Below are positions 15,170-41,605 of a stretch of 41,771 nucleotides of DNA, one piece after another; the stretch's first letter is position 1; each line of letters begins with the position of its first letter. This stretch comes from a virus (taxonomy: Duplodnaviria > Caudoviricetes), in IMG/VR virus record IMGVR_UViG_3300014656_000047, positions 1-41,771 of that record; one strand, 5' to 3'. The notes beneath the pieces were generated by a model that saw nothing but the letters and a program-made list of their open reading frames with translations, ran no database searches and was not told where the DNA came from. Position numbers and translations under genes: made by a program.

Positions 15170-15987
15170 GATTTTTAGACTTCTTCTCTGGTATTGGTGG
15201 CTTTCGATTGGGAATGGAAATGGCAGGACACGAATGTGTAGGACATTGTGAAATAGATAAATACGCAGATAAAAGCTACAGAGCAATGCACAATGTAAAG
15301 GAGGACGAATGGTATGCAAATGACATTACAGGAGTTGAACCCGGAGATTTACCCGAAACAGACTGTTACTGTGGAGGATTTCCTTGCCAACCTTTCTCCA
15401 TTGTTGGAAAGCGTGGAGGTTTCGAAGATACACGAGGCACTTTATTCTTTGAAGTCATGCGGTTGGTGGCAGTACGAAAACCTAAATATCTTTTCTTGGA
15501 AAATGTCGCAGGACTTCTTTCCCATGATGGAGGAAAAACTTTCGGAACTATCCTCGACACTTTGGGGGAATTGGGGTACTGGTACGAATACCAGGTGCTT
15601 AACAGCAAAAATTTCGGAGTCCCACAAAACAGAGAAAGGGTGTTCATTATCGGACATCTTGGAGAGTACGACGGAAAGCAAGCGTTTCCTATCCTTAGAA
15701 CAAGTCAAAAAAATGGTGAAGAGATTAAAAAGAAGAGGGAAAAAATTAGATATTCTCAATGTCTCACAACAAGAGGAGCAAAATCAAGGCTTGGAGCAGA
15801 TTATACTTGGATTATTCAAGATGGAAAATTAAGAGAAATGTCACCCAAAGAATGGTTTAGATTACAAGGGTTTACTGATGAATACTTCGAAAAGGCAAGG
15901 CAAGTAAATTCAGATTTACAGCTTTACAAACAAGCCGGGAATTCAGTTACCGTAAATGTAATACATGAGATAGCACAAAGACTTTAA
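15166..15987 (+). CDS. dcm: DNA (cytosine-5)-methyltransferase
   Basis: Motifs I FSGIGG, IV GGFPCQ, VI ENV, VIII PQNRERV, IX RLQGF, X QAGNSV; GTGA overlap start. Confidence 0.95.
   Translation: MRFLDFFSGIGGFRLGMEMAGHECVGHCEIDKYADKSYRAMHNVKEDEWYANDITGVEPGDLPETDCYCGGFPCQPFSIVGKRGGFEDTRGTLFFEVMRLVAVRKPKYLFLENVAGLLSHDGGKTFGTILDTLGELGYWYEYQVLNSKNFGVPQNRERVFIIGHLGEYDGKQAFPILRTSQKNGEEIKKKREKIRYSQCLTTRGAKSRLGADYTWIIQDGKLREMSPKEWFRLQGFTDEYFEKARQVNSDLQLYKQAGNSVTVNVIHEIAQRL
15314..15832 (+). CDS. Nested out-of-frame ORF inside dcm; putative second methyltransferase polypeptide
   Basis: 172 open codons; strong SD AAGGAGG 9 nt before ATG15314; CSLSDILE...KRFLS segment. Confidence 0.65.
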   Translation: MQMTLQELNPEIYPKQTVTVEDFLANLSPLLESVEVSKIHEALYSLKSCGWWQYENLNIFSWKMSQDFFPMMEEKLSELSSTLWGNWGTGTNTRCLTAKISESHKTEKGCSLSDILESTTESKRFLSLEQVKKMVKRLKRRGKKLDILNVSQQEEQNQGLEQIILGLFKMEN

Positions 15988-25526: not shown

Positions 25527-25732
25527 AACAAGAAACGTAAAATTCGGTAGAACAGGGGTGATGGGATGAAAGATATTTTACATTGGAATGAATTGTCTAA
25601 AGATACAAAAAGATTTTTGTTGATAATTGCAGGAATAAATATATTTGCTCTGGGATTTATAATAGGATACATAAATTAGGTGAATTTATGAACATATATA
25701 ACAGGATTTTACATATAAAGGAAGTGGATAAA

Positions 25733-26275
25733 ATGGCAAGACAGGGGCTAACAGTTAAGCAAGAAAAGTTTGCTCAAAACTTATTTACAGGCATGAGTCA
25801 AAGGGAAGCATACACTGACGCATATAACGCTCAAAACATGCTTGATAAGACGATAGATGAAGAAGCATGCAGACTAGCTAACGACTGCAAGATAACTGCA
25901 AAAATTGAACAGTTAACCGAAGAATTAAAGCTTCGCAACATGGTTACGGTCGAAAGAGTAGTGGCTGAGTATGCCAAGTTAGGTTTCTTTGACCCTCGCA
26001 ACCTGTTTCGCGCTGACGGTACACCTAAACCCATAGCAGAGTTAGACGATGATACAGCTGCAGCCTTGACCGGGCTTGATGTGCAAGAAGTGTACGAAGG
26101 ATCCGGCGAGGATAGGAAGTTTGTGGGCTATACAAAGAAATACAAGCTAACAGATAAAAAGTCCGCTCTAGACAGCATGGCAAAGTACCTGGGTATGTTC
26201 ACCGAAAAAATCGAACACACCGGCAAGGATGGCGGGCCGATAGAGTTTGAGCAGATACTGAGGGATATAGAATAA
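25733..26275 (+). CDS. terS: Terminase small subunit
   Basis: LTVKQEKFAQ...SQREAY..AY, ERVVAEYAKLGFFD, KKSALDSMAKYLGMF, HTGKDGGPI. Confidence 0.9.
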   Translation: MARQGLTVKQEKFAQNLFTGMSQREAYTDAYNAQNMLDKTIDEEACRLANDCKITAKIEQLTEELKLRNMVTVERVVAEYAKLGFFDPRNLFRADGTPKPIAELDDDTAAALTGLDVQEVYEGSGEDRKFVGYTKKYKLTDKKSALDSMAKYLGMFTEKIEHTGKDGGPIEFEQILRDIE

Positions 26276-26576: not shown

Positions 26577-27659
26577 ATGTACAAAATACCATTATCACGC
26601 CCATCTATCACCACAGCCGAAGGGCAGGCGGCATACGACACTGTTATGTCCTATCAACTGGCCCAGGGTGCAAAAGTCGAAGAATTCGAGCAAAGAATAG
26701 CTGAATACGTTGGCACAAAATACACCATAGCAGTATCAAGCGGGACGGACGGGCTATTTTTATGCCTGAAAGCCTGTGGCATAGGCCAAGGTGACGAGGT
26801 TATTACTACACCTTATACGTTTATTGCTACATTATTTGCCATAGAACAGGCAGGGGCAAGGCCGGTACTGGTGGACATAGACGGGGATACGTATAACATT
26901 AATCTTGCAACAATGCACAGAAACACGCTTGACGGTATTAAGGCATATATGCCGGTTGACGTATTCGGAAATCCGTATGATACTTCAAACAATAATACTG
27001 CCTTACCTATTATAATTGACTCGTGCGAAAGCCTAGGCAGTCGCATAGACCGTCCATTCGATGCATGTGTATACGCTTTTTATCCTAACAAACAGATCAC
27101 CACCGGCGAAGGTGGCATGATCTGCACCAACAACAAAGATATAGCCGACTATTGCCGTGCATACCGCAACCAGGGCAGAGCACCTGGGGATAAGTGGCTG
27201 CAGCATAGCCAAAAAGGTGGAAATTACCGGATGACGGACATACAAGCGGCTATAGGTGTAGAGCAGATGAGGCGTATAGACGAGATTAAGCAGAAAAGAC
27301 AATTAGTTGCCCTGACATATCACGAGATGTTATCAGACTTATATATTTCCAAAATAATTAATTGGCAGGAGTTTACAAGCCACGATATAAACCCGTTTGC
27401 TTTTGTAATAGAAGTACCAAACCGTGATAAGGTAATGCAGTACCTGATAGACAAGGGTATAGAATGCAAGCCTTATTTCCCGTGCGTACACTTACAACCG
27501 GCCATGGCTCATTTGGGATACAAGTCCGGAGATTTCCCTATAGCAGAAGAGGTAAGCAGTAGGACACTAGCACTACCGTTTTACACAGACATGACTGAAG
27601 AGGAAGTGAATTATGTGTGTGAGAAACTGCAGGAGGCACTAAACGATGGCTATTATTAA
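26577..27659 (+). CDS. DegT/DnrJ/EryC1/StrS PLP-dependent sugar aminotransferase (PseC/LegC-like)
   Basis: VSSGTDGL, GDEVIT..YTFIAT, DSCESLG, FYPNKQITTGEGG, NYRMTDIQAAIG. Confidence 0.92.
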   Translation: MYKIPLSRPSITTAEGQAAYDTVMSYQLAQGAKVEEFEQRIAEYVGTKYTIAVSSGTDGLFLCLKACGIGQGDEVITTPYTFIATLFAIEQAGARPVLVDIDGDTYNINLATMHRNTLDGIKAYMPVDVFGNPYDTSNNNTALPIIIDSCESLGSRIDRPFDACVYAFYPNKQITTGEGGMICTNNKDIADYCRAYRNQGRAPGDKWLQHSQKGGNYRMTDIQAAIGVEQMRRIDEIKQKRQLVALTYHEMLSDLYISKIINWQEFTSHDINPFAFVIEVPNRDKVMQYLIDKGIECKPYFPCVHLQPAMAHLGYKSGDFPIAEEVSSRTLALPFYTDMTEEEVNYVCEKLQEALNDGYY

Positions 27660-27862
27660 AATGCATTGCCAAAAGTGCGGTAAAGAAATTCCATTTTGCT
27701 ACACAATACAAAGAATGGGCTGTTTTTGTGCTGAATGCGCTGGAATAGACGAAACAAAAAGTACTTGCAAATCCTTTGAAGGAATAAAAATAAAAGACTA
27801 TGCGTGGAGTTCGGCAAGTTGCCAAGTGCTAGTAGATTATATGGAAAAATAAAGGAGGAACT

Positions 27863-28108
27863 ATGTTAGACGATAAAACGGTTAACAGCGTAACCGAACT
27901 TATTAAAAGGTCTGAAAAAGCCAGCAAGCTACTGTCGTTATGCTTTGAGTTAGATAATTTATGGCAAAACAGTTACTTTTCCGTAAAAATTTCAAACAGA
28001 ACAGCAGAAGCTTATGTTGAAGTTTCGGAAGAAACTGCAAAGATGATACAGCACGATATTTTGACGCAAATAGGAAAAGTTGAAAAGGAATTAAAGGAGG
28101 CACTATGA
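27863..28108 (+). CDS. Hypothetical protein
   Basis: ORF track; SD AAGGAGG. Confidence 0.6.
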   Translation: MLDDKTVNSVTELIKRSEKASKLLSLCFELDNLWQNSYFSVKISNRTAEAYVEVSEETAKMIQHDILTQIGKVEKELKEAL

Positions 28109-28233
28109 TAACTATAAATTTTGATAGCCCTATACTTGCCATCGCATGCATAGTAACAATTATTGCAATAGGCATATATTTTTTTACCGAACACACAAAA
28201 TCCAAGCGAGATAATGTGTAAAAAGGAGGTACT

Positions 28234-28473
28234 ATGATAGTTATAGGCAGGGTAACTGAGGAAGAAAGAGAGCAATACTATATGCTCAAAGCACAGCTTA
28301 CAACTATAAAGCAAAATCAATGTGAACTGCTGAATAGGGAAATGTCAATAGTGTACCAAATAAATAAATTCTGGCAAAGCATAGGACACAAATACAACAT
28401 AGACACCGAACATATACCCTATTCTATCAAGGAAAACGGTGATTTAACTATATGGGAGGGTAACAATGCGTAA
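28234..28473 (+). CDS. Hypothetical protein
   Basis: ORF track; SD AAGGAGG. Confidence 0.6.
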   Translation: MIVIGRVTEEEREQYYMLKAQLTTIKQNQCELLNREMSIVYQINKFWQSIGHKYNIDTEHIPYSIKENGDLTIWEGNNA

Positions 28474-29659
28474 AATATGTGTAATAACATCAGGTCGACA
28501 AGATTACGGACATTTATATTTCATTCTAAAAGATATAGAAGCAAGCAACAAACTTGAACTTGTCGTATTTGCACCTGGAAACCATCACTGTATACGAGAA
28601 ATAATGCAGGAATTCAAAACTGTTCAAATGACACCATGCATTAGGGGAATACAGGATTACGGCAATTTCTATTCTTTTGTGCTTGATGCCTTGAAAGCCT
28701 ATAATCCTGACATGGTTATGGTTTTAGGAGATAGATTTGAAACACACGCAGCAGCTACAGCAGCTTTACTGCTTAATGTGCCCATAGTCCATGCTCATGG
28801 AGGGGAAATCACAAAAGGAGCGTTTGACGATAAATTGCGTAATGGCATAACCATGATGTCTGATATTCATTTTACAGCACATGAAGAATATGCTAAAAAT
28901 GTATCTTATATGGCCCGAATTGGCGAATACAGGGATTGCATAACAAATGAATATTGCTGGAACATGAACGAAGATGGCTTTGGTTATGAAAGATTCGACA
29001 CGCAAGACGAAAAAACCAAAAAACACGTTAAAATATTCAACGTCGGTAGCCCTGGAATTGACTGGTTAACTCGTGCCAAACTAAAAACCAAAGCAGAACT
29101 ACAACAAGGCTTGTCGATTGACTTGAATCAGCCGTTTTATGTGTGCTGTTTCCATCCTGAAACAAAAAACCTTGCAAATACAGAACGGCACATCAAGGAA
29201 TTTTGTACCGCATTGGATAAAACAGGTATGCAGATACTTTTTGTCATGCCTAATTGCGATCCCTGCAACAACATAATCCGCCAAGTAGTCCAAAGCTATG
29301 ACGATGCAGGAAGATATTCAGACTGTAAACCGCATTTATGGCATTGTGTAGACAACATTGACCACCTGACATACTTATCCCTGCTTCAATGCGCCGAAAT
29401 GATAGTAGGTAACAGTTCAAGTGGAATAATAGAAGCGGCAAGCTTTAATCTACCCGCTGTCAATATAGGTACACGTCAGGAAGGGCGAATTAAACCGGAT
29501 AATGTATTCTCGTGCCTGTGTGAAACAGAAGCCATTTTGGCCGCTATAGACCGTGCTAGGGAATGGAACGCACTAGTAGGGAAATGCGGCAACCCTTATG
29601 GGGATGGAAGGTCCAGTCAAAGAATAGTAAAGGTATTGGAGGAAGTGAAGGAATTATGA
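28466..29659 (+). CDS. neuC: Hydrolysing UDP-N-acetylglucosamine 2-epimerase (NeuC/LegG family)
   Basis: RKICVITSGRQDYG, VLGDRFE, HAHGGE...D..R..IT, FHPET, GNSSSGIIEA, NIGTRQEGR, NPYGDG. Confidence 0.9.
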   Translation: MRKICVITSGRQDYGHLYFILKDIEASNKLELVVFAPGNHHCIREIMQEFKTVQMTPCIRGIQDYGNFYSFVLDALKAYNPDMVMVLGDRFETHAAATAALLLNVPIVHAHGGEITKGAFDDKLRNGITMMSDIHFTAHEEYAKNVSYMARIGEYRDCITNEYCWNMNEDGFGYERFDTQDEKTKKHVKIFNVGSPGIDWLTRAKLKTKAELQQGLSIDLNQPFYVCCFHPETKNLANTERHIKEFCTALDKTGMQILFVMPNCDPCNNIIRQVVQSYDDAGRYSDCKPHLWHCVDNIDHLTYLSLLQCAEMIVGNSSSGIIEAASFNLPAVNIGTRQEGRIKPDNVFSCLCETEAILAAIDRAREWNALVGKCGNPYGDGRSSQRIVKVLEEVKEL

Positions 29660-30351
29660 ACACAGCAATTTTTTTAACAACCCGCTATAGTAGCACAAGA
29701 CTACCCGGGAAATCGCTACTTAAAATAAACAGTCAAACAGTAACAGATATACTAATAGGCAGGCTAAAGAAAACAGGCTTGCCTATAATTATTTGTTGTC
29801 CTGATACAATAGACGATGTACTTCACATGCAGCCTATTGCCGAAAGAAACGCAGTAGGCTTTTATGCCGGTGAGCCAACTAATATAATAAAACGGCATTA
29901 TGATTGTGCTATAGAAAACAATGTTAATACTATCATAAACGTGGATGGTGACGATATACTTGCCTGTCCAGAAGTCATAAACGCAGTAAATTACGAATTA
30001 TCATCGCACCAACGCGCCAATGTAGTTAAGACAGTTGGTTTGCCTTTAGGTCTTAATATATTAGGCTACAGGGCAAAGATACTCAAAGACATTGACTATA
30101 ATTCAGACACCAATTGGGGAGCACAAATCAAAAATACCTATACCTCAATGTTGCGGTTTGACTATAACACGCCTTACAGATTAACACTAGATTACGAAAA
30201 TGATCTTAGTGTAATAGAGGACGTCTTAACCAACTGCAAGCGTAATATTTTAGTAGGCGGTATATGCAATTACCTTAGAAAACATACGCATATAGCACAA
30301 TTAAATATAGGAAGGAACAAGGAATATTGGGAAAGGATAGGTACCGCATGA
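29656..30351 (+). CDS. Acylneuraminate/Kdo cytidylyltransferase family (SpsF/PseF/KdsB-like)
   Basis: R..STRLPGKSL N-terminal motif, VDGDD, RLTLDY..DL; ATGA coupling to neuC. Confidence 0.85.
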   Translation: MNTAIFLTTRYSSTRLPGKSLLKINSQTVTDILIGRLKKTGLPIIICCPDTIDDVLHMQPIAERNAVGFYAGEPTNIIKRHYDCAIENNVNTIINVDGDDILACPEVINAVNYELSSHQRANVVKTVGLPLGLNILGYRAKILKDIDYNSDTNWGAQIKNTYTSMLRFDYNTPYRLTLDYENDLSVIEDVLTNCKRNILVGGICNYLRKHTHIAQLNIGRNKEYWERIGTA

Positions 30352-30839
30352 TAGAAGTATACAAGAATCTATACGTAGGCAATGAACAAGACTACGAACA
30401 GACAGTCAAGGGTAGTGAAGAATGGGCTGTCTTGCATGTATGCAAAGAACCGTATCACAGACAGATGCTAGGGTATACAAGCCGTGGTGCACCCAAAGAC
30501 CATAAAGAGTATTTGTTTGCCGAAAGAGACAATAGACTTGCTCTCAACATTGTAGATGCAGATAATCCGGAATATTTTGGTCCGGGTATGATTAATTACG
30601 CAATGTGCTTTATCCTTAACAAGCTTGAAAAGAACCTAAAAGTACTTGTACATTGCAACCAAGGGGAAAGCCGCAGCCCATCTATAGCAATGCTGTATAT
30701 GGCTATATGCGGATACATACCCAACGATACAATAGAAGATGCAGAAAAAGCATTTATGCAATTGTATCCAAAATATAACCCTAAACAGGGTATAAGAGGA
30801 CACATGGAAAAGTTTTGGGATGAATATATAGGGAGGTAA
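30348..30839 (+). CDS. Dual-specificity (CX5R) phosphatase family protein
   Basis: VLVHCNQGESRS P-loop; ATGA coupling. Confidence 0.85.
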   Translation: MIEVYKNLYVGNEQDYEQTVKGSEEWAVLHVCKEPYHRQMLGYTSRGAPKDHKEYLFAERDNRLALNIVDADNPEYFGPGMINYAMCFILNKLEKNLKVLVHCNQGESRSPSIAMLYMAICGYIPNDTIEDAEKAFMQLYPKYNPKQGIRGHMEKFWDEYIGR

Positions 30840-30854
30840 ATATGAAATATTATA

Positions 30855-30977
30855 CAATGGTCGGTGGAATTGGGAATAAATTACGACACTTTAAAGGCAA
30901 GATTAGGCAAAAATTGGTCTATTGAAAAAGCATTTACTGAACCAATAAGTATGTTAAGGAGGAAGAAAACAGTATGA
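30855..30977 (+). pseudogene. C-terminal relic of a deleted HNH homing endonuclease
   Basis: QWSVELGINYDTLKARLGKNWSIEKAFTEP resembles the tail of 21067..21714; out of frame with the upstream SD-ATG at 30842. Confidence 0.6.
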
Positions 30978-32005
30978 AGTACTTAATAATTTCTAGAGGC
31001 TCGATGTCTAAACGCCGCCAACGTTGTTTAAAGACACTAGGCTATAACGACTATATAACATGGGATATAACCGATAAAGAACCAATACAAGAACTTGTTG
31101 AACAATACAAACCCAACACAATGATTATATCAAGTCCACCTTTGACTAAGCAACCTTATATTACACTTGCAAATAATTTTAGCCTAATTCCATTTTGCGA
31201 AGCCGACATACAAACATATTCAGGCGACTATTATCCGAGTAGCACTATGCGCTTTCACCCTGCTATAACTAAAATAAAAGAACTGATTGACAATGGTACA
31301 CTAGGCAACGTCTATACATTCACACATCATTGTGGAAATCACATTGCAGACTGGCACCCTGGGGCAGACATGAAAACTTATTACGCAGCACAAAAGGAAA
31401 CGGGTGGCTGTAAGGAAATTTTTCCTTTTGAATTATCATGGCTATCATGGTTATTCGGTGAGCCTAAAAATGCCGTAGGAATGATAAACAAGACATTGAA
31501 TGATAAAGATATTACCGCAGACGATGTTTATACAACTGCTTGTAAGCTTGGCAATATAACTGGTACTATCCTAATAGACATAGTATCTCGTCCCGCCATT
31601 CGCGAACTGCGTATTGTAGGCGAGAAAGGTATTATTGAATGGAATTGGAACGAAGATTTTGTTTATCATAAGTTTGCAGACGGGTTAAATCAATATCAAC
31701 ATTATGTGCCAAAAGGGCAAGCTGCAGAGGGATATCATTCAGCGATTTGCGAGCAAATGTACATTGACGAAATTAAGGCATTTATAAATAGCATAACGCC
31801 GACTTGTGGAAATTGTGAATACATTAATCCAAAAGAAAAACAGCCCCACACGACAAGTCATTGTTGCACAAAATACAACAAGCAATTATTACACAGGGGC
31901 TATCACCCTGATTTATGCAAGCTTGATGAATGTAAATCTTATTTTTACACTAAGGCAGAGGAAGAACATGTAATAAAAATGTTAAGGAGAGTGGAGGGAA
32001 AATGA
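30974..32005 (+). CDS. Gfo/Idh/MocA-family oxidoreductase
   Basis: Degenerate Rossmann start (IISRGSMSKRR), FCEA, MRFHPAI..IKELI..G.LG, DWHP...YYAA...GG; extra Cys-rich C-terminal insert. Confidence 0.8.
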   Translation: MKYLIISRGSMSKRRQRCLKTLGYNDYITWDITDKEPIQELVEQYKPNTMIISSPPLTKQPYITLANNFSLIPFCEADIQTYSGDYYPSSTMRFHPAITKIKELIDNGTLGNVYTFTHHCGNHIADWHPGADMKTYYAAQKETGGCKEIFPFELSWLSWLFGEPKNAVGMINKTLNDKDITADDVYTTACKLGNITGTILIDIVSRPAIRELRIVGEKGIIEWNWNEDFVYHKFADGLNQYQHYVPKGQAAEGYHSAICEQMYIDEIKAFINSITPTCGNCEYINPKEKQPHTTSHCCTKYNKQLLHRGYHPDLCKLDECKSYFYTKAEEEHVIKMLRRVEGK

Positions 32006-32542
32006 ATGTATGATAGTAAAGAGGATACTTTAAAGCATATAGACCATGTTGTTAATTACTTGGGCCGCATTTATTCACAACTGATAATAAGAGGGCAAAA
32101 ACACGACCAAACAAAGCTTTTCGAACCTGAAAAATCTGTATTCGATGAGCACACGCCAAAGCTCGCACAATCAACTTACGGAAGCGATGAATATAAGGAA
32201 CATCTAAAGGAAATGAAAGTTGCTCTTGACCATCATTACTCAGAGAACAGACATCATCCGGAACACTTCAAAAAGTATGCTTGTAACGGCTGTTTCAAAG
32301 AGTTCAAAGAAATGCCAAATACTTGCGATGTATGCGGTTATTCTCAATTTCAGGAGGAATCAGACATATCTCAAATGACACTTATTGACCTATGTGAAAT
32401 GATAGCAGATTGGAAAGCAGCAACTTTAAGACACAATAACGGAGACATAATGAAAAGTATCGAAATTAATCAAAAGAGGTTTAAGTATAGCGATGAATTG
32501 AAACAAATTTTTATAAAAACAGTAAAGGAATATTTTGAATAA
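32006..32542 (+). CDS. DUF5662-like HD-type protein
   Basis: H...V, HDQTK, HHYSENRHHPEH, EMIADWKAA. Confidence 0.7.
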   Translation: MYDSKEDTLKHIDHVVNYLGRIYSQLIIRGQKHDQTKLFEPEKSVFDEHTPKLAQSTYGSDEYKEHLKEMKVALDHHYSENRHHPEHFKKYACNGCFKEFKEMPNTCDVCGYSQFQEESDISQMTLIDLCEMIADWKAATLRHNNGDIMKSIEINQKRFKYSDELKQIFIKTVKEYFE

Positions 32543-32666
32543 ACCGATTTTAGTAAACTAAAAGGCTACTTTTTAACAGGAGGTCTTATGTACTACAATC
32601 ACATAGAATGCATACTAACCAAACAGCAGCTTAAGTAGCTGCTATTTTATTTCAAGGAGGTTTAAT

Positions 32667-33098
32667 GTGAAAAATAAAATAGAATTTAAAGTCTGTGGTC
32701 AAGGAAATAACCCCGAAGCCTATAAAGAATGTGAGGAATTTATTGAGAAGTGGAAAAAAATTCTGAGAATTCAGGACTGGGAAACAAAACTTTCGTTTAT
32801 TAGCGGAGAAGAAATTTATGAACAAATGAAAAGCTTTGATTATGTGGCTTCTTGCGACAGAGATTTAGTTAACAAAACTGCATATATAAGTGTAAATGTC
32901 GAGCATTCAAGGATAAATGAGTGTATAGAAAAAACATTGCTGCATGAACTTTTGCACATTGTAACCTATGAATGGCAAAACATAGTTGAGAATTCTATCG
33001 AAGACGAAGAATTACAAGAATATAGCCGTGTAAAAATGGAGCAGACTGTTGAAAGTTTGGCAAAATCATTTGCTTATTTTGCGGAGGTGAAAGTCTGA
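32667..33098 (+). CDS. Putative zinc metallopeptidase-like protein
   Basis: LLHELLH (HExxH); last codon and stop are supplied by the IS110 end. Confidence 0.6.
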   Translation: MKNKIEFKVCGQGNNPEAYKECEEFIEKWKKILRIQDWETKLSFISGEEIYEQMKSFDYVASCDRDLVNKTAYISVNVEHSRINECIEKTLLHELLHIVTYEWQNIVENSIEDEELQEYSRVKMEQTVESLAKSFAYFAEVKV

Positions 33099-33198
33099 AA
33101 CCATAGTCGTGACTGGCAGAAACTAAAAAAAGGCACCACAAATAAAGCTCCAAATTGGCGCTCTTTGAAAAATTAATAGCTACAGTATTAAACCGATA

Positions 33199-34437
33199 TC
33201 AATCCTTAACTACTGAGAAACCGTGGCTTTTGGCATAAAAAACAGCCTGTTGTACTGTGATTACTTTTGAAGTTGGAATAGTTTCTGTTTTTTTATAAAG
33301 CTCAGCATTGTAAGGTTCTCTTTTCTTAAGGATGTGATATATAGCAGTAAGCATCATTCGTGCAATGGCAATGACTGCACGTTTGTGACCACGTCGCTTC
33401 TTGATAGACAAATAGCGACCACGGATTTCAGGGTGTTTTTCACTTATTACAACGGCATTAGCACATTGTACTAAAAGTGGTTTAATATAAACACCAGCAC
33501 GAGAAATGCGAACAGATTTTTTCTTGCCAGCACTCTCGTCATTTTGTGGAGTTAAGCCAGCCCACGAGCATAAGTGTTTAGCTGTAGGAAACACAGACAT
33601 ATCAGCACCTATTTCTGAAATTATTGAGATAGCAGAGAAAGGATTTTTGATACCTGGTACAGTTGACACTAGACTACATTCTTGGGCATATAACTCCGAA
33701 AGCGAAAGAATCAAGGATTCGAGATTGAGCTTACACTTTTCCAGTTCGTCATAATGCTGAAGTATGATATTCATTTTTTGCAATTGCTCAGGAGTGAAGT
33801 TCCCGTCAATAGCAAGTCGTATATCATCAACCTTATTAAGCATAGAAGCGTGAAGAAAAGGAACAAAATCGAAATCCTTATCATTAGGATTTTCAAGTAA
33901 GTGATCAATGATTTTCATTGAACTCTTACCGAAAGTATCAGATACCACATTTGAAAGCTGTATATTTGATACAGTAAGACAATTTTGAAGCCTATTCTTT
34001 TCGCTTGATTTAAAATTTGTTAGTTTGAAGCGGTAACGCATCAAATCCCGCAATTGACGAATTGCAAGCGGAGGCATAAAGCTTCCGGCAACAAGGTCGT
34101 GCTTAAAGAGATCAGCAATCCATTTAGCATCCTTCTTGTCAGTTTTCTTGCCACGGATAGCCTTGACGTACTTTGGGTGAGCCAGTGTTATTTTGCAAGT
34201 TACTTCTAGCACATTAAACACAGGTATCCAGTACTTGCCAGTGGATTCCATACAAATTTCGGTGCAGGAATTGGAGTAAAGCCACTCCGACAGCTTTCTC
34301 AAACCACTTGTAAAGGTTGAAAAGCGACTGGACTTGTAAGATGTAATACCCTTGTTGTCCGTTGCGGCAATACAAGCAACAATAAACTTTTTGTGGACAT
34401 CGATTCCACAGCAGATGGGGTAAACGATTTTTAACAT
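33199..34437 (-). CDS. IS110-family transposase/recombinase
   Basis: GIDVHK, MESTGKYW, KTDKKDA, SWAGLTP...SAGK. Confidence 0.95.
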   Translation of the reverse strand: MLKIVYPICCGIDVHKKFIVACIAATDNKGITSYKSSRFSTFTSGLRKLSEWLYSNSCTEICMESTGKYWIPVFNVLEVTCKITLAHPKYVKAIRGKKTDKKDAKWIADLFKHDLVAGSFMPPLAIRQLRDLMRYRFKLTNFKSSEKNRLQNCLTVSNIQLSNVVSDTFGKSSMKIIDHLLENPNDKDFDFVPFLHASMLNKVDDIRLAIDGNFTPEQLQKMNIILQHYDELEKCKLNLESLILSLSELYAQECSLVSTVPGIKNPFSAISIISEIGADMSVFPTAKHLCSWAGLTPQNDESAGKKKSVRISRAGVYIKPLLVQCANAVVISEKHPEIRGRYLSIKKRRGHKRAVIAIARMMLTAIYHILKKREPYNAELYKKTETIPTSKVITVQQAVFYAKSHGFSVVKD

Positions 34438-34479
34438 AGATATCCCTTCTTAAATAGATTATAGGGATTACAGACATTA

Positions 34480-34730
34480 ACTGATTGTTCAGCAATAAAC
34501 GAGTATTGTTTATACAAAGATAAGTCTTCGTGATCTATGTCACACTTATTTGTGCTTGAAAGAACAATCTACACATATAAACATGCGGTCAACTCCCAAA
34601 GGAGCAGCACACTCACCTCCCCGTGATTTGTAGTTGCCTGCAATCTCTATACTATAGTTGTAAAATAAAATAAGCTCAAAGGCAACGGTTTCATTCCGTT
34701 TTGTGCCTTGAGCGAAGCGAAAGGAATGGT
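34480..34730 (-). ncRNA. Putative IS110 bridge RNA
   Basis: Non-coding end with stems; internal-loop segments GGAGGUGA (34613-34620) and CAUGUUU (34579-34585) match the two target flanks; AGACUUAU (34520-34527) matches the predicted circle junction. Boundaries approximate. Confidence 0.7.
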
Positions 34731-34737
34731 TATAAAC

Positions 34738-36024
34738 ATGAAACACTTTGCAACCTACAGCCGTTCAAATGATTGTTTCCCTGCGAATTGCCCGTCAGTA
34801 TTTACTAGTGCAAAAGACTGTCACGTCACAGCACAAGACGGACGAGAGTTCATTGACTGGGGAATGAGCCTGAGGTCTGTTATTCTTGGATATTGCAATG
34901 AAAATGTTGACAATGCGGTAATAAAAGCCATACAAAAAGGTATAAGCTTTACACGGTCCAATCCATACGAGGAAGAACTGCGGGAGTTAATACGTTCAAT
35001 TATACCGTGCGCTGAAGAGGTCAAGTTTGGCAAAAATGGCTCAGATGCTACAAGCGCAGCAATAAAACTAGCAAGGGCATTTACGGGCAGGGATATCGTG
35101 CTAATAGCCGAGGAAAACCCATTCTATAGTCAGCACGATTGGTTTATTGGCACAACGTCATTTAATGATGGTATACCTTACTGCCGTGAGTGTAATGGAA
35201 CTATAACGAAATACAGTTACAACGACTTACTCATAAAAACTTCTGACATATGGGGAAGAGAAGATACAAAAGTAACACGGCTTGAATGGCTATGTGAAGC
35301 ATTTAGACCAGCTGCAATTATTCTTGATGCTTCAACTGTAGACATAACCAAAGAAAAACTACAGTATATCCGTGACCTCTGTACAAAGCATGGGGTAATT
35401 ATGATACTCGACGAGGTAATTTCCGGATTTCGTTACGGCATAAGCGGTGTACAAGGCTTATACGGTGTTACGCCTGACCTTGCAACATTCGGTAAGGCTA
35501 TGGCAAATGGCTATTCAATCTCTGCACTGTGCGGCAAGCGTGACCTTATGCAGTTGGGAGATAGGGAACATGGCAATACATTTCTCATGAGCGGAACTTA
35601 TTTTTCCAACACACCGGATTTGGCTGCAGGCATAGCAACTATACACGAAATTCGACAAAAAGGCGTAATAGACCACATAAATAATATTGGCTCAAACCTA
35701 TGCGAAGGCCTACAACAAGCTATTGACCTTCATAATATGGGCGAACACGTTAAATTTTCTCCTGCGTCAAGACATTGCAATCCACAATTGACGTTTTCAA
35801 GTATGGAATTAAAGACGTTGTGGGATCAATGTATGATTGAACGCGGTATTCTTATACCATATATAAGCCCTTCCTACAGCCATACAATAAACGAAGTTGA
35901 GCAAACTTTAGAAGCCGCCGATTATGCCCTAAGCGTGTGTAGGAAAGCTATAAATGAAAGAAACGTCAAAGAACTGCTATTGAACGGACATTGCGAACGC
36001 TCGGTATTCCGTAAAAAGGGGTGA
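34738..36024 (+). CDS. Class-III PLP aminotransferase (glutamate-1-semialdehyde aminomutase-like, sugar-pathway type)
   Basis: DGREFIDWGM, KNGSDATSAAIKLARA, LDEVISGFR, PDLATFGKAMANG; true start ATG34738. Confidence 0.88.
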   Translation: MKHFATYSRSNDCFPANCPSVFTSAKDCHVTAQDGREFIDWGMSLRSVILGYCNENVDNAVIKAIQKGISFTRSNPYEEELRELIRSIIPCAEEVKFGKNGSDATSAAIKLARAFTGRDIVLIAEENPFYSQHDWFIGTTSFNDGIPYCRECNGTITKYSYNDLLIKTSDIWGREDTKVTRLEWLCEAFRPAAIILDASTVDITKEKLQYIRDLCTKHGVIMILDEVISGFRYGISGVQGLYGVTPDLATFGKAMANGYSISALCGKRDLMQLGDREHGNTFLMSGTYFSNTPDLAAGIATIHEIRQKGVIDHINNIGSNLCEGLQQAIDLHNMGEHVKFSPASRHCNPQLTFSSMELKTLWDQCMIERGILIPYISPSYSHTINEVEQTLEAADYALSVCRKAINERNVKELLLNGHCERSVFRKKG

Positions 36025-36030
36025 TACCTA

Positions 36031-36483
36031 TTGAACCCATCTCAAATAGAACGACTACTAATCGAATACTCCAATATCCCCGAACGCAAAAAGGAGCTTG
36101 AAATAAAAACGCGTGAAGCCCAACTGCTTATACAAAACGCAGAGGATACGCTAAGAGTGCCAAGCTATGACGGTTTACCCCATGGTAATCTTTTGCAAGA
36201 TGCTGTCTATAAAGCAGTACAGAAGATACTAGACGAATATCAGATTCACCTCGACTATTACCAAGGACAGTTGAAACTGTTAAACGAAAAAGAAAGGGCT
36301 GTGTATGAGGCTTTAAAGTGTCTTGAACCTCATGAGTATAAAATAATCGAACTAAGGTACATAAGGGGCTATATGTGGAAAACAGTATCAATAAAGGTAA
36401 ATTATCACCGTGTACAGTGTATAAGGATAAGGGATAAGGCCATTGAGAAGATAAAACAAAGCTATAGGGATGAGTCCAATTGA
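36031..36483 (+). CDS. ArpU/RinA-like late transcriptional activator (copy 2)
   Basis: YDGLPHG, IIELRYI.G..WKTV...NY...C.RIRDKAI. Confidence 0.75.
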   Translation: MNPSQIERLLIEYSNIPERKKELEIKTREAQLLIQNAEDTLRVPSYDGLPHGNLLQDAVYKAVQKILDEYQIHLDYYQGQLKLLNEKERAVYEALKCLEPHEYKIIELRYIRGYMWKTVSIKVNYHRVQCIRIRDKAIEKIKQSYRDESN

Positions 36484-36596
36484 TACCAAAAATACTGTCA
36501 CTAAAATAAGGAGGCTATTTGCTCGAAACACGCTACTAAATGTTACATTTTGCATGGTACAATGGTATTGTACATTTTTACTTCCTTTTCGTAGTC

Positions 36597-36619
36597 GGGG
36601 CTATTATAGCCCCTTTTTT
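36597..36619 (+). terminator. Hairpin plus T-tract immediately before terL
   Basis: GGGGCTA-TTA-TAGCCCC-TTTTTT. Confidence 0.55.
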
Positions 36620-36620
36620 A

Positions 36621-38414
36621 ATGGGGGTGATACCAGTAGAAGATTATAAGAAGATTCTTAGTATATTAAAACACCAAACGGTCAAATATTTTGCAAAATG
36701 CCTTAAAATACGTGACAAAAACGGTAACATAATAGCCTTTGTGCCCAACGAACACCAAGAAAACATTATAAACATAGTCGAGGAATGGAAAAAGCAGTAC
36801 CCGGACGAGAACACGCGTCCAACACTGTTTATTATCATTCACAAAGCCAGACAGATTGGCTTTAGCACAGTGGTAGAAGGTATATTTTTTCACGAATTGA
36901 ACTTCAACAGCAATAAAGTTGCTATGGTAGTCAGTTTTGACGAAGATTCAGCACAAAACATAAATGATATGTCGGACAGGTTTTACCAGTACTTACCTAA
37001 ATGGATTAAGCCCATGAGAAGGCCGGCAAGAGGAAAGGGTATTTTGTTTGAAAACCCCGTAAATAAACAATCAGAATTTGAGAAAAACCCTGGATTACAA
37101 TGTAAATTCCTTATTGATACCGCAAGAAACATATATGCAGGTTCGTCATTTACCATAAATTACCTTCATTTATCGGAATTGGCAAAATGGCCTGATGCAA
37201 AGTCAACTTTAACGTCACTCATGCAAGCTGTCCCTCAAACAGGGGCTATTGTTGTTATAGAATCCACCGCAAATGGCATAGAGTACTTCCACAAATTATG
37301 GATGCAAGCTAAACGCGGGGAATTAAGCTATAAGTGTATATTCGTCGGTTGGCACATGCACGCCGAGTACACAAAAAAGTTTGAAAATGACATAGAAAAA
37401 GCTGATTTTATAAAAACCTTGTCAGAAAAAGAACTAAAACTGAAAAAGATATACAATTTGACATATGAACAGCTATACTGGCGCAGGGAAATGATGCGAA
37501 GTCCAAAGATAAACGGTGATGAAAACATATTTTTTCAGGAATACCCTGCAAGTGATGATGAAGCTTTCCTCACGTCCGGTAGGCCTGTATTTGACAGGCT
37601 GAAAATTAACGAAAGAATCAAATTCCTTGAAGAAAAATACAAGGACAATCCTCCTGATGTTGGATATATCGAATTTGTAGACGGTAAATATAAGTTTATT
37701 CCCGATGAATACGGCACCGTAATAATTTATGAGCACCCTAAAAAAGACTATCCATATGTATTCGGTGGTGATATAGCAGAAGGGCTTATAAATGGCGATT
37801 GGAGCGTAACACAGGTATGTGACAACACAACAGGTATACAAGTCGCAAAACAAAGACTGCATATACACCCTGACTTATTTGCATTGGAACAAATAAAACT
37901 GGCACATTATTACAACGAAGCCTTAATTGCAGATGAAGTAAACAACCACGGTATGACAACAATAACGTCATTGCAGCGTGAAAACTACTGGAAACAGTAT
38001 AAGCGTGAGATATTCGATAGGATTTCAAAATCTACCCAACAGAAATTCGGCTTTGATACCAAAGACCAGTCAAGGCAACGAATAATTGACAGGTTGAGGG
38101 CTATAGCGAGAGAAGAAATTGATTTGATAAACGACATTGAAACACTTAACGAAATGCTTACCTTTATTTACAACGACCAAGGCAAGGAAGAAGCGGAAAG
38201 CGATTGTTTCGACGATTGTGTTTTAAGTCTTGCAATCATGTACGAAGCAAGAAGCCAGCAAAGCGCAAACCCACCCAAGCCACATGAAAACATATTCAAA
38301 GGCAAGGAAGTACATTACAGCGTATTGCAGGACATGACAAAAAACACAAAGCTTAAAGAAAAGTTTAAACAAAAATATGGAATAAATACGATTAAGGTTG
38401 GAGGTAACAAATGA
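36621..38414 (+). CDS. terL: Terminase large subunit
   Basis: Walker A HKARQIGFST, Walker B LHLSE, ESTANG, FQEYP, nuclease GGDIAEG and DDCVLS; exact start uncertain. Confidence 0.93.
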   Translation: MGVIPVEDYKKILSILKHQTVKYFAKCLKIRDKNGNIIAFVPNEHQENIINIVEEWKKQYPDENTRPTLFIIIHKARQIGFSTVVEGIFFHELNFNSNKVAMVVSFDEDSAQNINDMSDRFYQYLPKWIKPMRRPARGKGILFENPVNKQSEFEKNPGLQCKFLIDTARNIYAGSSFTINYLHLSELAKWPDAKSTLTSLMQAVPQTGAIVVIESTANGIEYFHKLWMQAKRGELSYKCIFVGWHMHAEYTKKFENDIEKADFIKTLSEKELKLKKIYNLTYEQLYWRREMMRSPKINGDENIFFQEYPASDDEAFLTSGRPVFDRLKINERIKFLEEKYKDNPPDVGYIEFVDGKYKFIPDEYGTVIIYEHPKKDYPYVFGGDIAEGLINGDWSVTQVCDNTTGIQVAKQRLHIHPDLFALEQIKLAHYYNEALIADEVNNHGMTTITSLQRENYWKQYKREIFDRISKSTQQKFGFDTKDQSRQRIIDRLRAIAREEIDLINDIETLNEMLTFIYNDQGKEEAESDCFDDCVLSLAIMYEARSQQSANPPKPHENIFKGKEVHYSVLQDMTKNTKLKEKFKQKYGINTIKVGGNK

Positions 38415-38737
38415 ACTTTGAAGAAAAAAACACCCCACAAATCCACATTGCACCAGAACACAAGGCAATAAGCCCTGACAAAATACCAAAACGCAAGGAA
38501 GAAAAGCAGCCAGACTTTTACGAAATGAGCATAGATGAACTGCTTGCGTATGCAGTAGCGCACTTATCAATGAAAGTTAACATGCAACACTATATGGACC
38601 CTTACGACGTAAGGAATACAAAAGCAAAAGTGCAAAAACTTGACATGGTAGCCCTTCGTACACTCGAAAGGGCTTTTTTAATGCATTTGGTAAAGGACCA
38701 TGGTTATGGAGAAATTTTGTTAAAGACAGGTGATTAA
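38411..38737 (+). CDS. Hypothetical protein between terL and portal
   Basis: ORF track; ATGA overlap. Confidence 0.7.
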   Translation: MNFEEKNTPQIHIAPEHKAISPDKIPKRKEEKQPDFYEMSIDELLAYAVAHLSMKVNMQHYMDPYDVRNTKAKVQKLDMVALRTLERAFLMHLVKDHGYGEILLKTGD

Positions 38738-38739
38738 AA

Positions 38740-40797
38740 ATGGACCTGATTAAACCTATAAAAGCCCTTATGCAAAGGGGGAAAAAACGAATGGAAGAAA
38801 AGAACACAGAACTCGAAATGATAGCAGAAGCACAAAAACTGCGTACAGAGTTTGGCAATGCCAAGAACGAAAAAACACAGTGGAATGATAAATTTGACCG
38901 TGAAGAACAGGTCTACATGGGTGACAGGGAGTTTGGCAACATATATTCGGATTCCACAAAGGACGACATCCGTACCACTGTTAGAATATCTCAGACCTTT
39001 ATTGAATCGCAGATAGACTTATCTATACCTGATGCTGTTTTTAAGCCTGTAGCACAGGACGATGAGGCACCGGTAAAGAAATTACAGGCTGAGGTAGATT
39101 ATGCCCTTAGAAGTAGTAATTTGGACGAAATAAACGCACTTGCAGAGCGTGAAGTAAAGAAATACGGTATGGTAGCATATAAGGTCATAGAAGACAATAA
39201 CTACAAGGGTTATGGATACCGTGGAAAGCCAAAAATAATTTGTATCCACCCTAAAAACATTTTATGGGCTGTAGGGACAACCGACAAGAACAAATGCAGG
39301 TGTTGGTATCATGTAGAAAATGAAACCCTGGCAGAATGTAAAAAAAGATATGGTGATGCCGCAAAACAACTTCCCAATCATGGTGAACGCGCAGACGTTG
39401 AATATGACAGGGTAGGCACATTTTATGAGGGTAATGTTAATAAGACAAACGATGTTAATATATCTCCTGACGTGTATAAACATTCGGCAGACAGTCCGGA
39501 AGCAAAGTATGTAATTATAGAAAAATGGTACCTGGATGATAAGGATGAATGTGGACTAGTAGTATTCTCGAATGAATGTATTCTGCTTAAAATTCCAAAG
39601 TTCTACCACAGGAGAAAATATAACCCTGATGAAGATGAGTATGAGAAAGACGAAGAAGAAAACGAGATATACGACGATACGGAAGTCGTAAAAGACGATT
39701 ACATGGAAGAGGTAGAAACAGAAAAAGGTAAAGAAAAGCGCAAAGAAAAGCGCAAAGAAAAGCGGGTAAGGTTAGAATCAGGAACAGAGGTTGAAAGATT
39801 TCACCCTAAAGGCCCTGAGTCATTGCCAATCGTAATACAAAACAATATCCCGAGGTCAAAATCTATTGTTGGAATATCTGACATAGAAAGAACTTACGAC
39901 TTTGAACAGGCAATGAAGAAAATGCTTAACAAGCATGAAGAACGCATATTAAAAGGCAATACCAAGATACTCTATAACAAGAACGTCGAAGAAGAAGCAG
40001 CACAGCTTATTGACAATGACGACCTTAACATAATAGGCGTAAATGACGTCAATAACTTTAAAGACTTTGAGTTCAAGGACAAAGGCCGTGAAGCGTTAGA
40101 ATTTTACGGTTTCCTCACTGAACAACTACAATATCAAATGGGCATAAATCAGGTATGGCAGGGACAGGCGCAAGGTGAAGCCAAGTCGGGTAAAGCCATA
40201 AACGCACTTATAGGCCAAACGCAGGAAAAAATAGGCATAAAGGTAAATGAAAAAAATATCGCTTTTAAAAGGCTTTACAGGCTGATGTGCAACTTTATAT
40301 TATGTTTTAGTGACGGCAACCTCCCATATAGGCTTGACAATACCCTACAGCCTGAATATGGCGTATTTAACCGTTATGACATGGTTAAAAAAGACGATAG
40401 CGGAAATCCAATATACATAGACTTTGACATAGAAGTAAGCGCAGAACAAGGATTCCCCAAGACCAAGACTGGATTAATGGAGATTATCCTTGAACTTGCA
40501 GGCGGTGGCTACATGGAAGCTGTTCCCCGTAACATACTTGTATGGCAAACATTGGCGAAATTGGGATTCCCTAACTCAGAAGCAATACTCCAAACACTGC
40601 AAAATGAACTCGATAATCAGATGATGCAACAACAGGCTTTACAGCAAAATGAAGGGCAGGGAATGGAACAGGGAGTAGAACAAAGCGACAATATGGACCA
40701 AATAATTCAGCAGCTTCCGGAGGATATGCGTGAGGAATTTTTAGCAATGAAACCAGAAGAACAGCAAGCTTTAATTAATGGAGGACAAAATGTTTAA
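38740..40797 (+). CDS. Portal protein
   Basis: Position after terL, 685 aa, SGKAI motif, Gln-rich C-terminal tail as in P22-like portals. Confidence 0.8.
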   Translation: MDLIKPIKALMQRGKKRMEEKNTELEMIAEAQKLRTEFGNAKNEKTQWNDKFDREEQVYMGDREFGNIYSDSTKDDIRTTVRISQTFIESQIDLSIPDAVFKPVAQDDEAPVKKLQAEVDYALRSSNLDEINALAEREVKKYGMVAYKVIEDNNYKGYGYRGKPKIICIHPKNILWAVGTTDKNKCRCWYHVENETLAECKKRYGDAAKQLPNHGERADVEYDRVGTFYEGNVNKTNDVNISPDVYKHSADSPEAKYVIIEKWYLDDKDECGLVVFSNECILLKIPKFYHRRKYNPDEDEYEKDEEENEIYDDTEVVKDDYMEEVETEKGKEKRKEKRKEKRVRLESGTEVERFHPKGPESLPIVIQNNIPRSKSIVGISDIERTYDFEQAMKKMLNKHEERILKGNTKILYNKNVEEEAAQLIDNDDLNIIGVNDVNNFKDFEFKDKGREALEFYGFLTEQLQYQMGINQVWQGQAQGEAKSGKAINALIGQTQEKIGIKVNEKNIAFKRLYRLMCNFILCFSDGNLPYRLDNTLQPEYGVFNRYDMVKKDDSGNPIYIDFDIEVSAEQGFPKTKTGLMEIILELAGGGYMEAVPRNILVWQTLAKLGFPNSEAILQTLQNELDNQMMQQQALQQNEGQGMEQGVEQSDNMDQIIQQLPEDMREEFLAMKPEEQQALINGGQNV
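39730..39764 (+). repeat. 12-bp in-frame tandem repeat (KEKR x3) in the portal gene
   Basis: AAAGAAAAGCGC repeated about three times. Confidence 0.8.
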
Positions 40798-41605
40798 AGG
40801 TAAAAAAATACTTATTATCGGTGCGAGTGGCACATTAGGGCAGGTGTTAATTGACGAATTTTTAAGATATGACATACACTCCATAAGGGTATTTAGCAGA
40901 AATGAACACAAACAATTCCTGCTAAGGCAAAAATACGGAGAGCCTACAGACAGGATAAGGTATTTTTTAGGTGATATAAGAGATAAAGAACGCCTTGATA
41001 TGGCTTTTAACGGTGTCGACGTTGTAGTGAATTGTGCAGCTTTAAAACACGTATCATTGTGCAACGAAAACCCTATGGAAACACTCAAAACTAACGTTAT
41101 AGGTGTACAAAATGCCCTTGAATGTGCAGTTAAGAACAATATTGAGTTATTTGTCCAGATATCAACAGATAAGGCTGTAAACCCAACTAATATATATGGA
41201 TGCAGCAAGGCAATGGCAGAGTATCTTGTCCTGGATGTTCCAAATTGGCAAGGTAGAAACCGCACTAAGTTTGTAGTTGTGCGCTCAGGTAATATTATTG
41301 GGAGTTCGGGAAGCGTTTTACAAATATGGCAGAAGCAATATGAAGAAGGTAAGCCATTGACGGTTACGGATATGGAAGCCGAGAGATACATGGCAGAAAA
41401 AGAAGATATTGCTAAAGCCATAATCGATATATGTTCTGACACTCAAAATGGCTTATACGTGCTTTCAATGCCAAAGGTAAAGGTAAGAGACTTAATCAGC
41501 AAGTATGGCGGCTGTAAAGTTAATATAATAGGTCTACAGCAAGGGGAGAAAGCCTCAGAACAACTCTTCCGTCCTGACGAGAAATTTACATTGGTGGAGG
41601 TGTGA
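40790..41605 (+). CDS. UDP-N-acetylglucosamine 4,6-dehydratase family (PseB/LegB/CapD-like SDR)
   Basis: GASGTLG, GDIRD, AALKHV..C..NP.E..KTN, STDKAVNP, YGCSK, GNIIGSSGSV; overlaps the portal stop. Confidence 0.9.
   Translation: MFKGKKILIIGASGTLGQVLIDEFLRYDIHSIRVFSRNEHKQFLLRQKYGEPTDRIRYFLGDIRDKERLDMAFNGVDVVVNCAALKHVSLCNENPMETLKTNVIGVQNALECAVKNNIELFVQISTDKAVNPTNIYGCSKAMAEYLVLDVPNWQGRNRTKFVVVRSGNIIGSSGSVLQIWQKQYEEGKPLTVTDMEAERYMAEKEDIAKAIIDICSDTQNGLYVLSMPKVKVRDLISKYGGCKVNIIGLQQGEKASEQLFRPDEKFTLVEV

Follow-up and report, generated by a model that had tools for sequence, protein, structure and literature searches.

To our knowledge, phage particles are usually taken to be unglycosylated, and the mycobacteriophages are the exception that we found cited. 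In bacteria, Maf glycosyltransferases have been described to put nonulosonates on exposed Ser and Thr residues of flagellin without a sequon (PMC11339370), with helical-bundle modules of these enzymes setting the acceptor (bioRxiv 2023.12.03.569772). The window analyzed here is a single virus contig of 41,771 nt (IMG/VR record IMGVR_UViG_3300014656_000047, CheckV completeness of 62%), a fragment of a temperate, podovirus-like phage in which six predicted nonulosonate genes lie among the DNA-packaging genes. Our results indicate that the phage family to which it belongs has genes predicted to cover every step that leads from UDP-GlcNAc to a CMP-nonulosonate and on to Ser/Thr of proteins, and the six core enzymes match the logic described for UDP-linked legionaminic-type routes (PMC13317340, PMC7439481). 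We hold it to be rather probable that the nine sugar genes of the late block make a CMP-5,7-diamino nonulosonic acid that likely bears one more amino group, and that the phage Maf puts this sugar on Ser/Thr of the phage's own virion. No phage with a full nonulosonate pathway plus a Maf is described in the literature searched, which did not extend to subscription journals.

An earlier note on this DNA had proposed that the phage makes an activated sialic-acid-like sugar at assembly time, through a pathway resident in the phage. The presence of NeuB, NeuD and Maf in relatives, the synteny and the selection on the genes all lend support to that proposal.

Gene order in related phages

Relatives were collected with a portal profile search, which gave 20 viral loci from four metagenome ids, or about 16 once near-duplicates are merged; scanning metagenomes recovered the window itself, for the most part these contigs again, and short fragments. 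The family order is terS, DegT aminotransferase, NeuC/LegG hydrolysing 2-epimerase (NeuC), cytidylyltransferase, Gfo/Idh/MocA oxidoreductase (Gfo), class-III aminotransferase, terL, portal, dehydratase, scaffold, capsid, neck and tail genes, the acetyltransferase NeuD, ejection proteins, the synthase NeuB, Maf and lysis genes. This gene order is more than chance, since it is the same in every relative with enough DNA, and only small variable genes differ between the sugar genes. The dehydratase stands directly after the portal in 18 of the 20 loci, the copy of G001 lying across a contig break and L020 ending inside the portal, and Gfo plus the class-III aminotransferase precede terL in all 13 loci for which upstream DNA exceeds 6 kb, while it is under 2.4 kb in the remaining 7. 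The relatives' sugar genes are 44-68% identical to those of the window (portal, 56-67%). The terS-sugar-terL-portal-dehydratase synteny that the earlier note had asked about is therefore conserved wherever a relative is long enough to show it.

All six sugar genes named at the outset are where they had been placed, on the late-gene plus strand and with open frames that match the corresponding profiles. ATGA overlaps couple NeuC to the cytidylyltransferase, the cytidylyltransferase to a phosphatase-like gene, and terL to a 108-aa gene, as had been noticed. The overlap of the dehydratase with the portal stop was likewise borne out: the start at 40778 or 40790 lies over the last codons of the portal, which ends at 40797, and a ribosome site precedes the start at 40790.

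No synthase, acyltransferase or glycosyltransferase is present in the window, because the contig stops just after the dehydratase. NeuD, NeuB and Maf were found in 6 of the 20 records, including both complete ones (G001 and G018), which answers the question raised previously on the rest of the genome. The other 14 records do not reach far enough to show them. The distance from the portal start to NeuD is at least 15 kb; 12 of these records break off before that point, G017 does so near it, and G013 reaches only as far as a radical-SAM block, which in G003 comes before NeuD. The ~26 kb that the window lacks would presumably hold the same three genes, and no viral contig overlapping the left end of the window was found. 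In 5 relatives, 1-15 nt separate the end of NeuD from the ejection gene that follows. A glycosyltransferase among virion genes is a feature of virion-glycosylating phages, and Maf lies between the ejection and lysis (holin) genes in 6/6 records, always after NeuB, with the G003 record cut inside it. The sugar genes thus occupy four separate late-gene sites and form no compact, set-apart cassette, and none lies in the replication block.

Other genes accompany the sugar genes in some relatives. A BNR-repeat sialidase-like gene sits right after Gfo in three of them (L001:13379-14398, L032:4333-5358 and L036:3939-4967); the proteins are 74% identical mutually, have no obvious signal peptide and conserve Arg, Glu and Tyr at what we take to be the places of sialidase catalytic residues. 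In G018, a carbon-nitrogen hydrolase (amidase) gene between the cytidylyltransferase and Gfo (L067:9427-9948) could clear a by-product of a glutamine-using aminotransferase. The tail regions of G003 (L013:6833-10562) and G013 (L071:6503-10732) carry two small Ser/Thr/Asp-rich proteins with a few cysteines, closely followed by two radical-SAM-like genes, possibly a second virion-modifying system. A large ejection-type protein of G001 (L008:739-4407) has an ART-PolyVal ADP-ribosyltransferase-like domain.

Predicted route and sugar product

From these genes we infer the steps that follow, and with them the stereochemistry, late expression and acceptor. The dehydratase would convert UDP-GlcNAc into a 4-keto-6-deoxy sugar, which DegT would aminate and the PglD/NeuD enzyme would acetylate; NeuC/LegG would then remove UDP and invert C2, NeuB would add pyruvate, and the cytidylyltransferase would give the CMP-activated sugar. 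Gfo would oxidize a remaining hydroxyl, probably at C8 as proposed for ElaA, the class-III aminotransferase would turn the resulting ketone into an amine, and, as virions assemble, Maf would attach single sugars to Ser/Thr within the cytoplasm.

The features of CMP-legionaminic pathways are divided between the window, which has the hydrolysing 2-epimerase and the CMP-nonulosonate synthetase, and the relatives, where alone PglD/NeuD and NeuB were found. DegT is certain as to family and aligned to PDB sugar aminotransferases, but the PseC and LegC models (233 vs 205 bits) both remain under cut-off. NeuC has the diNAc-bacillosamine hydrolysing 2-epimerase 5XVS as its best PDB match (E 1e-54), and its motifs are invariant in 4 phage copies. 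The cytidylyltransferase match is weak but real (PDB 6OEW, E 1.5e-9), PF02348 giving 43.1 bits in G018 against 26.4 in the window and a cut-off of 22.6. In the class-III enzyme, the stretch around the pyridoxal phosphate site aligned with glutamate-1-semialdehyde (GSA) aminomutase, and a PDB search with the window Gfo protein gave no match. The PglD/NeuD proteins of the relatives have PglD_N and Hexapep domains and score under the TIGR03570 cut-off. NeuB passes the PF03102 cut-off in the same 6 of 20 records, is 236-240 aa long without the usual C-terminal domain, and may be of NeuB or of PseI type. The relatives' Maf combines PF20157 (Maf_flag10_N) with PF01973 (MptE-like), and its structure model (predicted local distance difference test, pLDDT, 90.8) has the three-domain Maf fold, the Maf structure 5MU5 being its sole match at E < 0.001 (Foldseek E 1e-22, template modelling score 0.61).

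The dehydratase had been described as PseB/LegB-like, and only the first half of that label stood, with 243 bits for TIGR03589 (PseB) and 49 bits for the LegB model, both below cut-off (408 for the former). Its Thr-Asp-Lys and Tyr-x3-Lys motifs are invariant in 5 phage copies, and its PDB matches are 6BWC, 4J2O and 2GN4. We take the PseB-type tyrosine to make a C5-inverting first step possible, in which case the product would presumably be a C8 or C7/C8 epimer. The name legionaminic acid suggests more certainty about the exact sugar than there is. SpsM is reported to have Met146/Lys150 where the phage enzyme has Tyr-x3-Lys (PMC7439481). Pseudaminic acid is argued against as the product, since NeuC/LegG and a hexapeptide acetyltransferase are present and neither PseG nor the PseH GNAT family was found among the 76 open reading frames (ORFs, at least 100 aa) of the complete genome G018, the set to which all G018 counts below refer; NeuC and the hexapeptide enzyme would fill the steps that PseG and PseH take in the CMP-pseudaminic pathway.

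Gfo and the class-III aminotransferase likely add a third amino group, though this site and role are read from analogy. ElaA, also of the Gfo/Idh/MocA family, is proposed to oxidize C8 of CMP-legionaminic acid before reduction by a short-chain dehydrogenase/reductase, SDR (PMC13656337). Because an aminotransferase stands where ElaABC has the SDR, an 8-amino sugar is the likely product in the phage; the only SDR found in G018 is the dehydratase. An 8-amino nonulosonic acid structure has been reported from Flexibacter maritimus (PMC3210612), and one literature search found no paper on the enzymes that make it. On a Halorussus plasmid, homologues of Gfo, the cytidylyltransferase (E 2e-10, the middle gene) and the aminotransferase stand in a row, with NeuB, DegT and a polysialyltransferase gene nearby. 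However, the closest plasmid match of the aminotransferase, of those opened, lies in a non-nonulosonate polysaccharide cluster, so the aminotransferase family is not specific to nonulosonates, and the pair may alternatively serve precursor supply. The compact set of six plus two enzymes would let this uncharacterised module be tested, and as the sugar genes are all small, soluble and expressible, the question is a directly testable one.

Residence in the phage family

Where it could be tested, the sugar genes appear to be under purifying selection and long resident in the phage family. For unsaturated pairs, the ratio of nonsynonymous to synonymous substitution rates (dN/dS) ranged from 0.07 to 0.34 in seven sugar genes, Maf having the lowest value among them (0.07, from 2 pairs sharing one comparison), and from 0.02 to 0.15 in virion genes. 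Codon use of the sugar genes follows that of the packaging genes (r 0.86; IS110, 0.38). Divergence tracks the portal at p < 0.05 for 6 of the 9 genes, weakly for some. As pairwise divergence follows the portal for only these six, the sugar genes, like terL, are also exchanged among members of the family. Divergent types of terL (39-72% identical to that of the window) occur around unchanged sugar genes.

Among homologues of Maf, 33 clusters at 36-99% identity are followed by 21 at 21-29%; for the aminotransferase, about 43 top-ranked clusters at 45% or more are followed by others mostly at 39-44%. In the trees, all 15 phage aminotransferases fall with 41 top matches on one side of a branch with a Shimodaira-Hasegawa-like approximate likelihood ratio (SH-aLRT) of 100, against 26 lower matches (every third sampled), and 6 phage Mafs fall with 31 top matches on one side of a branch with a value of 99. 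Both trees are quick searches supported by SH-aLRT only, with long branches flagged, and most of their top and lower matches come without a known genomic context.

These data bear on the possibility that the sugar genes are a recently captured or decaying host operon. The IS110 element ahead of the window aminotransferase, the NeuB without a C-terminal domain (236 aa) and the short dehydratase could be read in that way, but the frames are open in all copies used, the positions are fixed, dN/dS is well under 1 where testable, the two genes placed in trees sit on phage-associated branches, and aminotransferases outside their branch are at most 44% identical. The idea is already largely refuted and we give it almost no credence, in agreement with the earlier note, to which this did not look like a fresh host capture.

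Candidate acceptors

Of the uses that had been suggested for the sugar, protein glycosylation is favoured, because Maf is the only glycosyltransferase found in G018, and the better supported acceptors are, in our judgement with fair probability, the tail and decoration proteins of the virion. Gene placement, fixed presence and the composition of the neck, tail and decoration proteins, which are richer in Ser/Thr and poorer in charge than those of Bacillus phage Page, all point this way. Pooled head and tail proteins of 5 relatives have 18.3-20.9% Ser+Thr and 13.8-16.2% charged residues vs 15.2% and 21.5% in Page, and the neck adaptor has 18-21% Ser+Thr vs 7.8% and 12.6% in two controls, the protein sets having been chosen by hand. 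The neck adaptor (L013:1536-2441 and homologues) is also ~110 aa longer than that of Page, with Thr/Ser runs. No flagellin gene (PF00669) was found in 5 phage records, while the control search was positive in 4 of 14 genomes.

Several results weigh against a virion acceptor, or against the reading as a whole. Among 150 matches to the tail hub, 27 were dropped for length and 6 close ones set apart; of the 117 full-length distant hubs left, whose Maf status is not known, 22 reach the lowest Ser/Thr of the family and 7 match it on both measures, and the shift is modest in what is a single clade. Neither the major capsid protein (14.4-16.6% vs 14.7% and 14.4%) nor the small pre-capsid protein (17-22% vs 23.8%) has a clear shift. 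Terminator-like hairpins lie after terS and before terL in the window, though promoter and terminator scans there gave chance levels (13 such hairpins vs 12.4 expected), and another lies just before NeuB in G019; a clear plus-strand promoter directly before NeuB was seen in neither of 2 relatives. DegT and the cytidylyltransferase offered only saturated pairs for dN/dS, no significant tracking of the portal is seen in how DegT, NeuB and Maf diverge (Mantel p 0.23, 0.23 and 0.11), and the relatives come from four metagenome ids, near-duplicates included. Finally, characterised Mafs act on flagellin (PMC11339370, bioRxiv 2023.12.03.569772), and the modelled phage Maf has retained, at its C-terminus, a bundle of helices that resembles the modules with which bacterial Mafs bind their acceptors.

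The last two points, together with the hairpin before NeuB, would equally fit a phage Maf that glycosylates host flagellin or another host surface protein and so alters motility, receptor status or superinfection by flagellum-binding phages. The phages are temperate, as their integrases indicate, Maf loci are reported to be common in Clostridium (PMC13317340), and prophage genes that alter host nonulosonates exist (epaAB, PMC12053666). However, the sugar genes stand at four different sites within the lytic genes, and some of them overlap virion genes, while P22 gtr is an opposite-strand cassette; no relative of sufficient length lacks them, the phage Mafs are only 21-29% identical to other Mafs, and a flagellar change shortly before lysis would seem of little obvious value. 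We therefore regard a host protein as an unlikely acceptor, if one to be kept in mind, next to the virion proteins favoured here.

An activated sugar could also feed a host glycan (cell-wall polymer, S-layer or spore crust) through host transferases, with Maf secondary. B. subtilis spores are described as covered with legionaminic acid by a UDP-linked route with SpsF (PMC7439481), the Gfo-cytidylyltransferase-aminotransferase trio occurs in an archaeal surface-glycan cluster, and the host is probably one of the Bacillota. This use is improbable in our estimation, as no flippase, polymerase or membrane glycosyltransferase was found in G018, and Maf has the low dN/dS given above, with its two pairs sharing one comparison, and always follows NeuB. 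Even less probable is a sugar put on phage DNA as an anti-restriction mark during packaging, although the sugar genes are close to the terminase and portal and phage glycosyltransferases are known to modify DNA (PMC12619734): G018 has ordinary DNA methyltransferases and no hydroxymethylase, TET/JBP or thymidylate-synthase family member, the transferase has the three-domain Maf fold, and the replication block has no sugar gene. DNA modification, also among the uses first suggested, thus found no support in that genome.

Window layout, host and comparison with known systems

From its left end, the window has an HNH gene, a weakly matched holin, a serine integrase (2765-4144; G001 and G018 have tyrosine integrases), repressors and replication genes before terS, and ends just past the dehydratase (Table 1). 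The true start of terL is probably ~30 codons inside the called frame, as relatives mostly align from residue 31-50. The gene before terL presumably deserves an ArpU-like label. No tblastn match to the phosphatase-like gene was found in 25 related loci, and it is probably not part of the sugar pathway. The 143-aa gene is often directly upstream of the class-III aminotransferase in relatives, the two abutting in several, and the G001 copy has a weak metallopeptidase match. IS110, which the earlier note had passed over, sits between these two genes with a codon use unlike the phage's and is not part of the sugar system. In this region (33099-34737), the 143-aa gene ends in a strong ribosome site, from which the element seems to have separated the aminotransferase; in DNA contigs of two runs, the element was present at near-flank depth. 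Elsewhere in the window are an N6/N4 DNA methyltransferase with a weak intein match (16393-17913), a C5 methyltransferase (15139-15987) and a PAPS-reductase-like gene (11653-12612).

Table 1. Predicted features of the window from terS to the dehydratase
Feature	Position	Strand	Evidence
terS, terminase small subunit	25688..26275	+	PF03592 E 3e-18; phrog_51
DegT-family sugar 4-aminotransferase (predicted step 2)	26577..27659	+	PF01041 E 9e-91
NeuC/LegG hydrolysing UDP-sugar 2-epimerase (predicted step 4)	28466..29659	+	TIGR03568 309.5 bits, cut-off 235.9
SpsF-like CMP-nonulosonate synthetase / cytidylyltransferase (predicted step 6)	29656..30351	+	PF02348 26.4 bits, cut-off 22.6
Dual-specificity phosphatase-like gene	30348..30839	+	PF00782 under cut-off
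Gfo/Idh/MocA NAD-dependent oxidoreductase (predicted tailoring oxidation)	30974..32005	+	PF22725 E 4e-12
143-aa protein	32667..33098	+	28-35% matches in many related loci
IS110 transposase	33199..34437	-	NF033542 over cut-off
Class-III (GSA-like) aminotransferase (predicted tailoring transamination)	34738..36024	+	PF00202 E 3e-36; PRK06209 370 bits, cut-off 486
Sigma-70-region-4-like transcriptional activator	36031..36483	+	phrog_36, phrog_248
terL, terminase large subunit	36540..38414	+	phrog_2 E 6e-27
108-aa gene between terL and portal	38411..38737	+	kept in most relatives
P22/podovirus-type portal	38740..40797	+	phrog_156 E 4e-28; PF16510 in G018 copy
PseB-like UDP-GlcNAc 4,6-dehydratase (predicted step 1)	40778/40790..41605	+	PF02719 E 5e-73

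The host is probably one of the Bacillota, since IS110 is 68% identical to an element on a Clostridium plasmid. Five genome-bin contig matches, titled Babeliales, Nanoarchaeia and Paceibacterota, were rejected as hosts and treated as mis-binned, four of them having the length of a viral contig already in the set. The family has no cultured member, as searches of GenBank phage records gave no close match: one weak match for the portal, one for NeuC (a bacterial record), three distant ones for NeuB and none for Maf in 50,697 records. The RNA library X6, which may hold DNA, covered patches in 7/30 late-region and 9/30 early-region bins.

The closest virion layout is that of the Bacillus megaterium Pagevirus phages, whose tail hub is ~30% identical; Bacillus phage Page shares the layout, down to a small gene in the slot between terL and portal, with no sugar genes annotated. 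As a gut-phage fragment also has no dehydratase between portal and scaffold, we suggest that the sugar genes were inserted at the seams of a podovirus late operon.

The Maf flagellin islands of Magnetospirillum (5MU5), Clostridium botulinum, Geobacillus and Shewanella resemble the phage set in their nonulosonate genes and three-domain PF01973/PF20157 Maf, with predicted cytoplasmic transfer of a CMP-sugar to Ser/Thr. The phage set differs in being phage-encoded and spread through a virion operon with no flagellin gene, and in its distant Maf. The UDP-linked CMP-legionaminic routes (PglF/PglE/PglD, LegG/NeuC, LegI and LegF; the B. subtilis Sps route as described in PMC7439481) share the six-step logic, the hydrolysing 2-epimerase, the hexapeptide acetyltransferase and the SpsF-like CMP-transferase, whereas the phages have a PseB-type Tyr in the dehydratase where SpsM has Met, the truncated NeuB and the extra oxidoreductase/aminotransferase pair. 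ElaABC of Acinetobacter baumannii, described for 8-epi-legionaminic acid (PMC13656337), also has a Gfo/Idh/MocA protein and a CMP-transferase in a nonulosonate cluster; the phage class-III aminotransferase in place of the SDR would mean amination, not epimerisation.

Among viruses, the prophage EpaAB genes (PMC12053666) are reported as a two-gene add-on that edits host capsule, with no full pathway, and conversion cassettes such as P22 gtr and EpaAB are compact and set apart from lytic operons, unlike the phage sugar genes. In mycobacteriophages, capsid and tail-tube proteins are targets of phage-encoded enzymes for glycosylation (Freeman et al. 2023, as cited in PMC10877033 and PMC12619734), but these belong to another transferase family, while the present phages would make their own rare sugar for likely tail and neck acceptors. 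The Megavirinae fibril clusters (PMC10117803) hold virus-encoded amino-sugar pathways, including bacillosamine, and transferases for the particle, but these are clustered genes for polysaccharides in giant eukaryotic viruses, and the words nonulosonic and legionaminic are absent from the main text of that paper.

If true, the reading favoured here would add another host group and another class of sugar to those known for virion glycosylation, and would give the first Maf with a non-flagellin acceptor, useful for glyco-engineering. More tentatively, it is possible that temperate podophages took over a flagellin sialylation machine and retargeted its Maf to the virion, with a coat of self-made triamino (8-amino) nonulosonic acid for which charged residues were traded for Ser/Thr sites, and with a cytoplasmic sialidase-like enzyme that in some phages edits or recycles the coat. 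Beyond the described systems, this case offers a full de novo pathway held among the core genes, a control phage that shares the virion layout but lacks the sugar genes, and a shift in the composition of tail proteins that can be measured; by analogy, the phage set would act as a flagellin glycosylation island transferred to the late operon of a phage.

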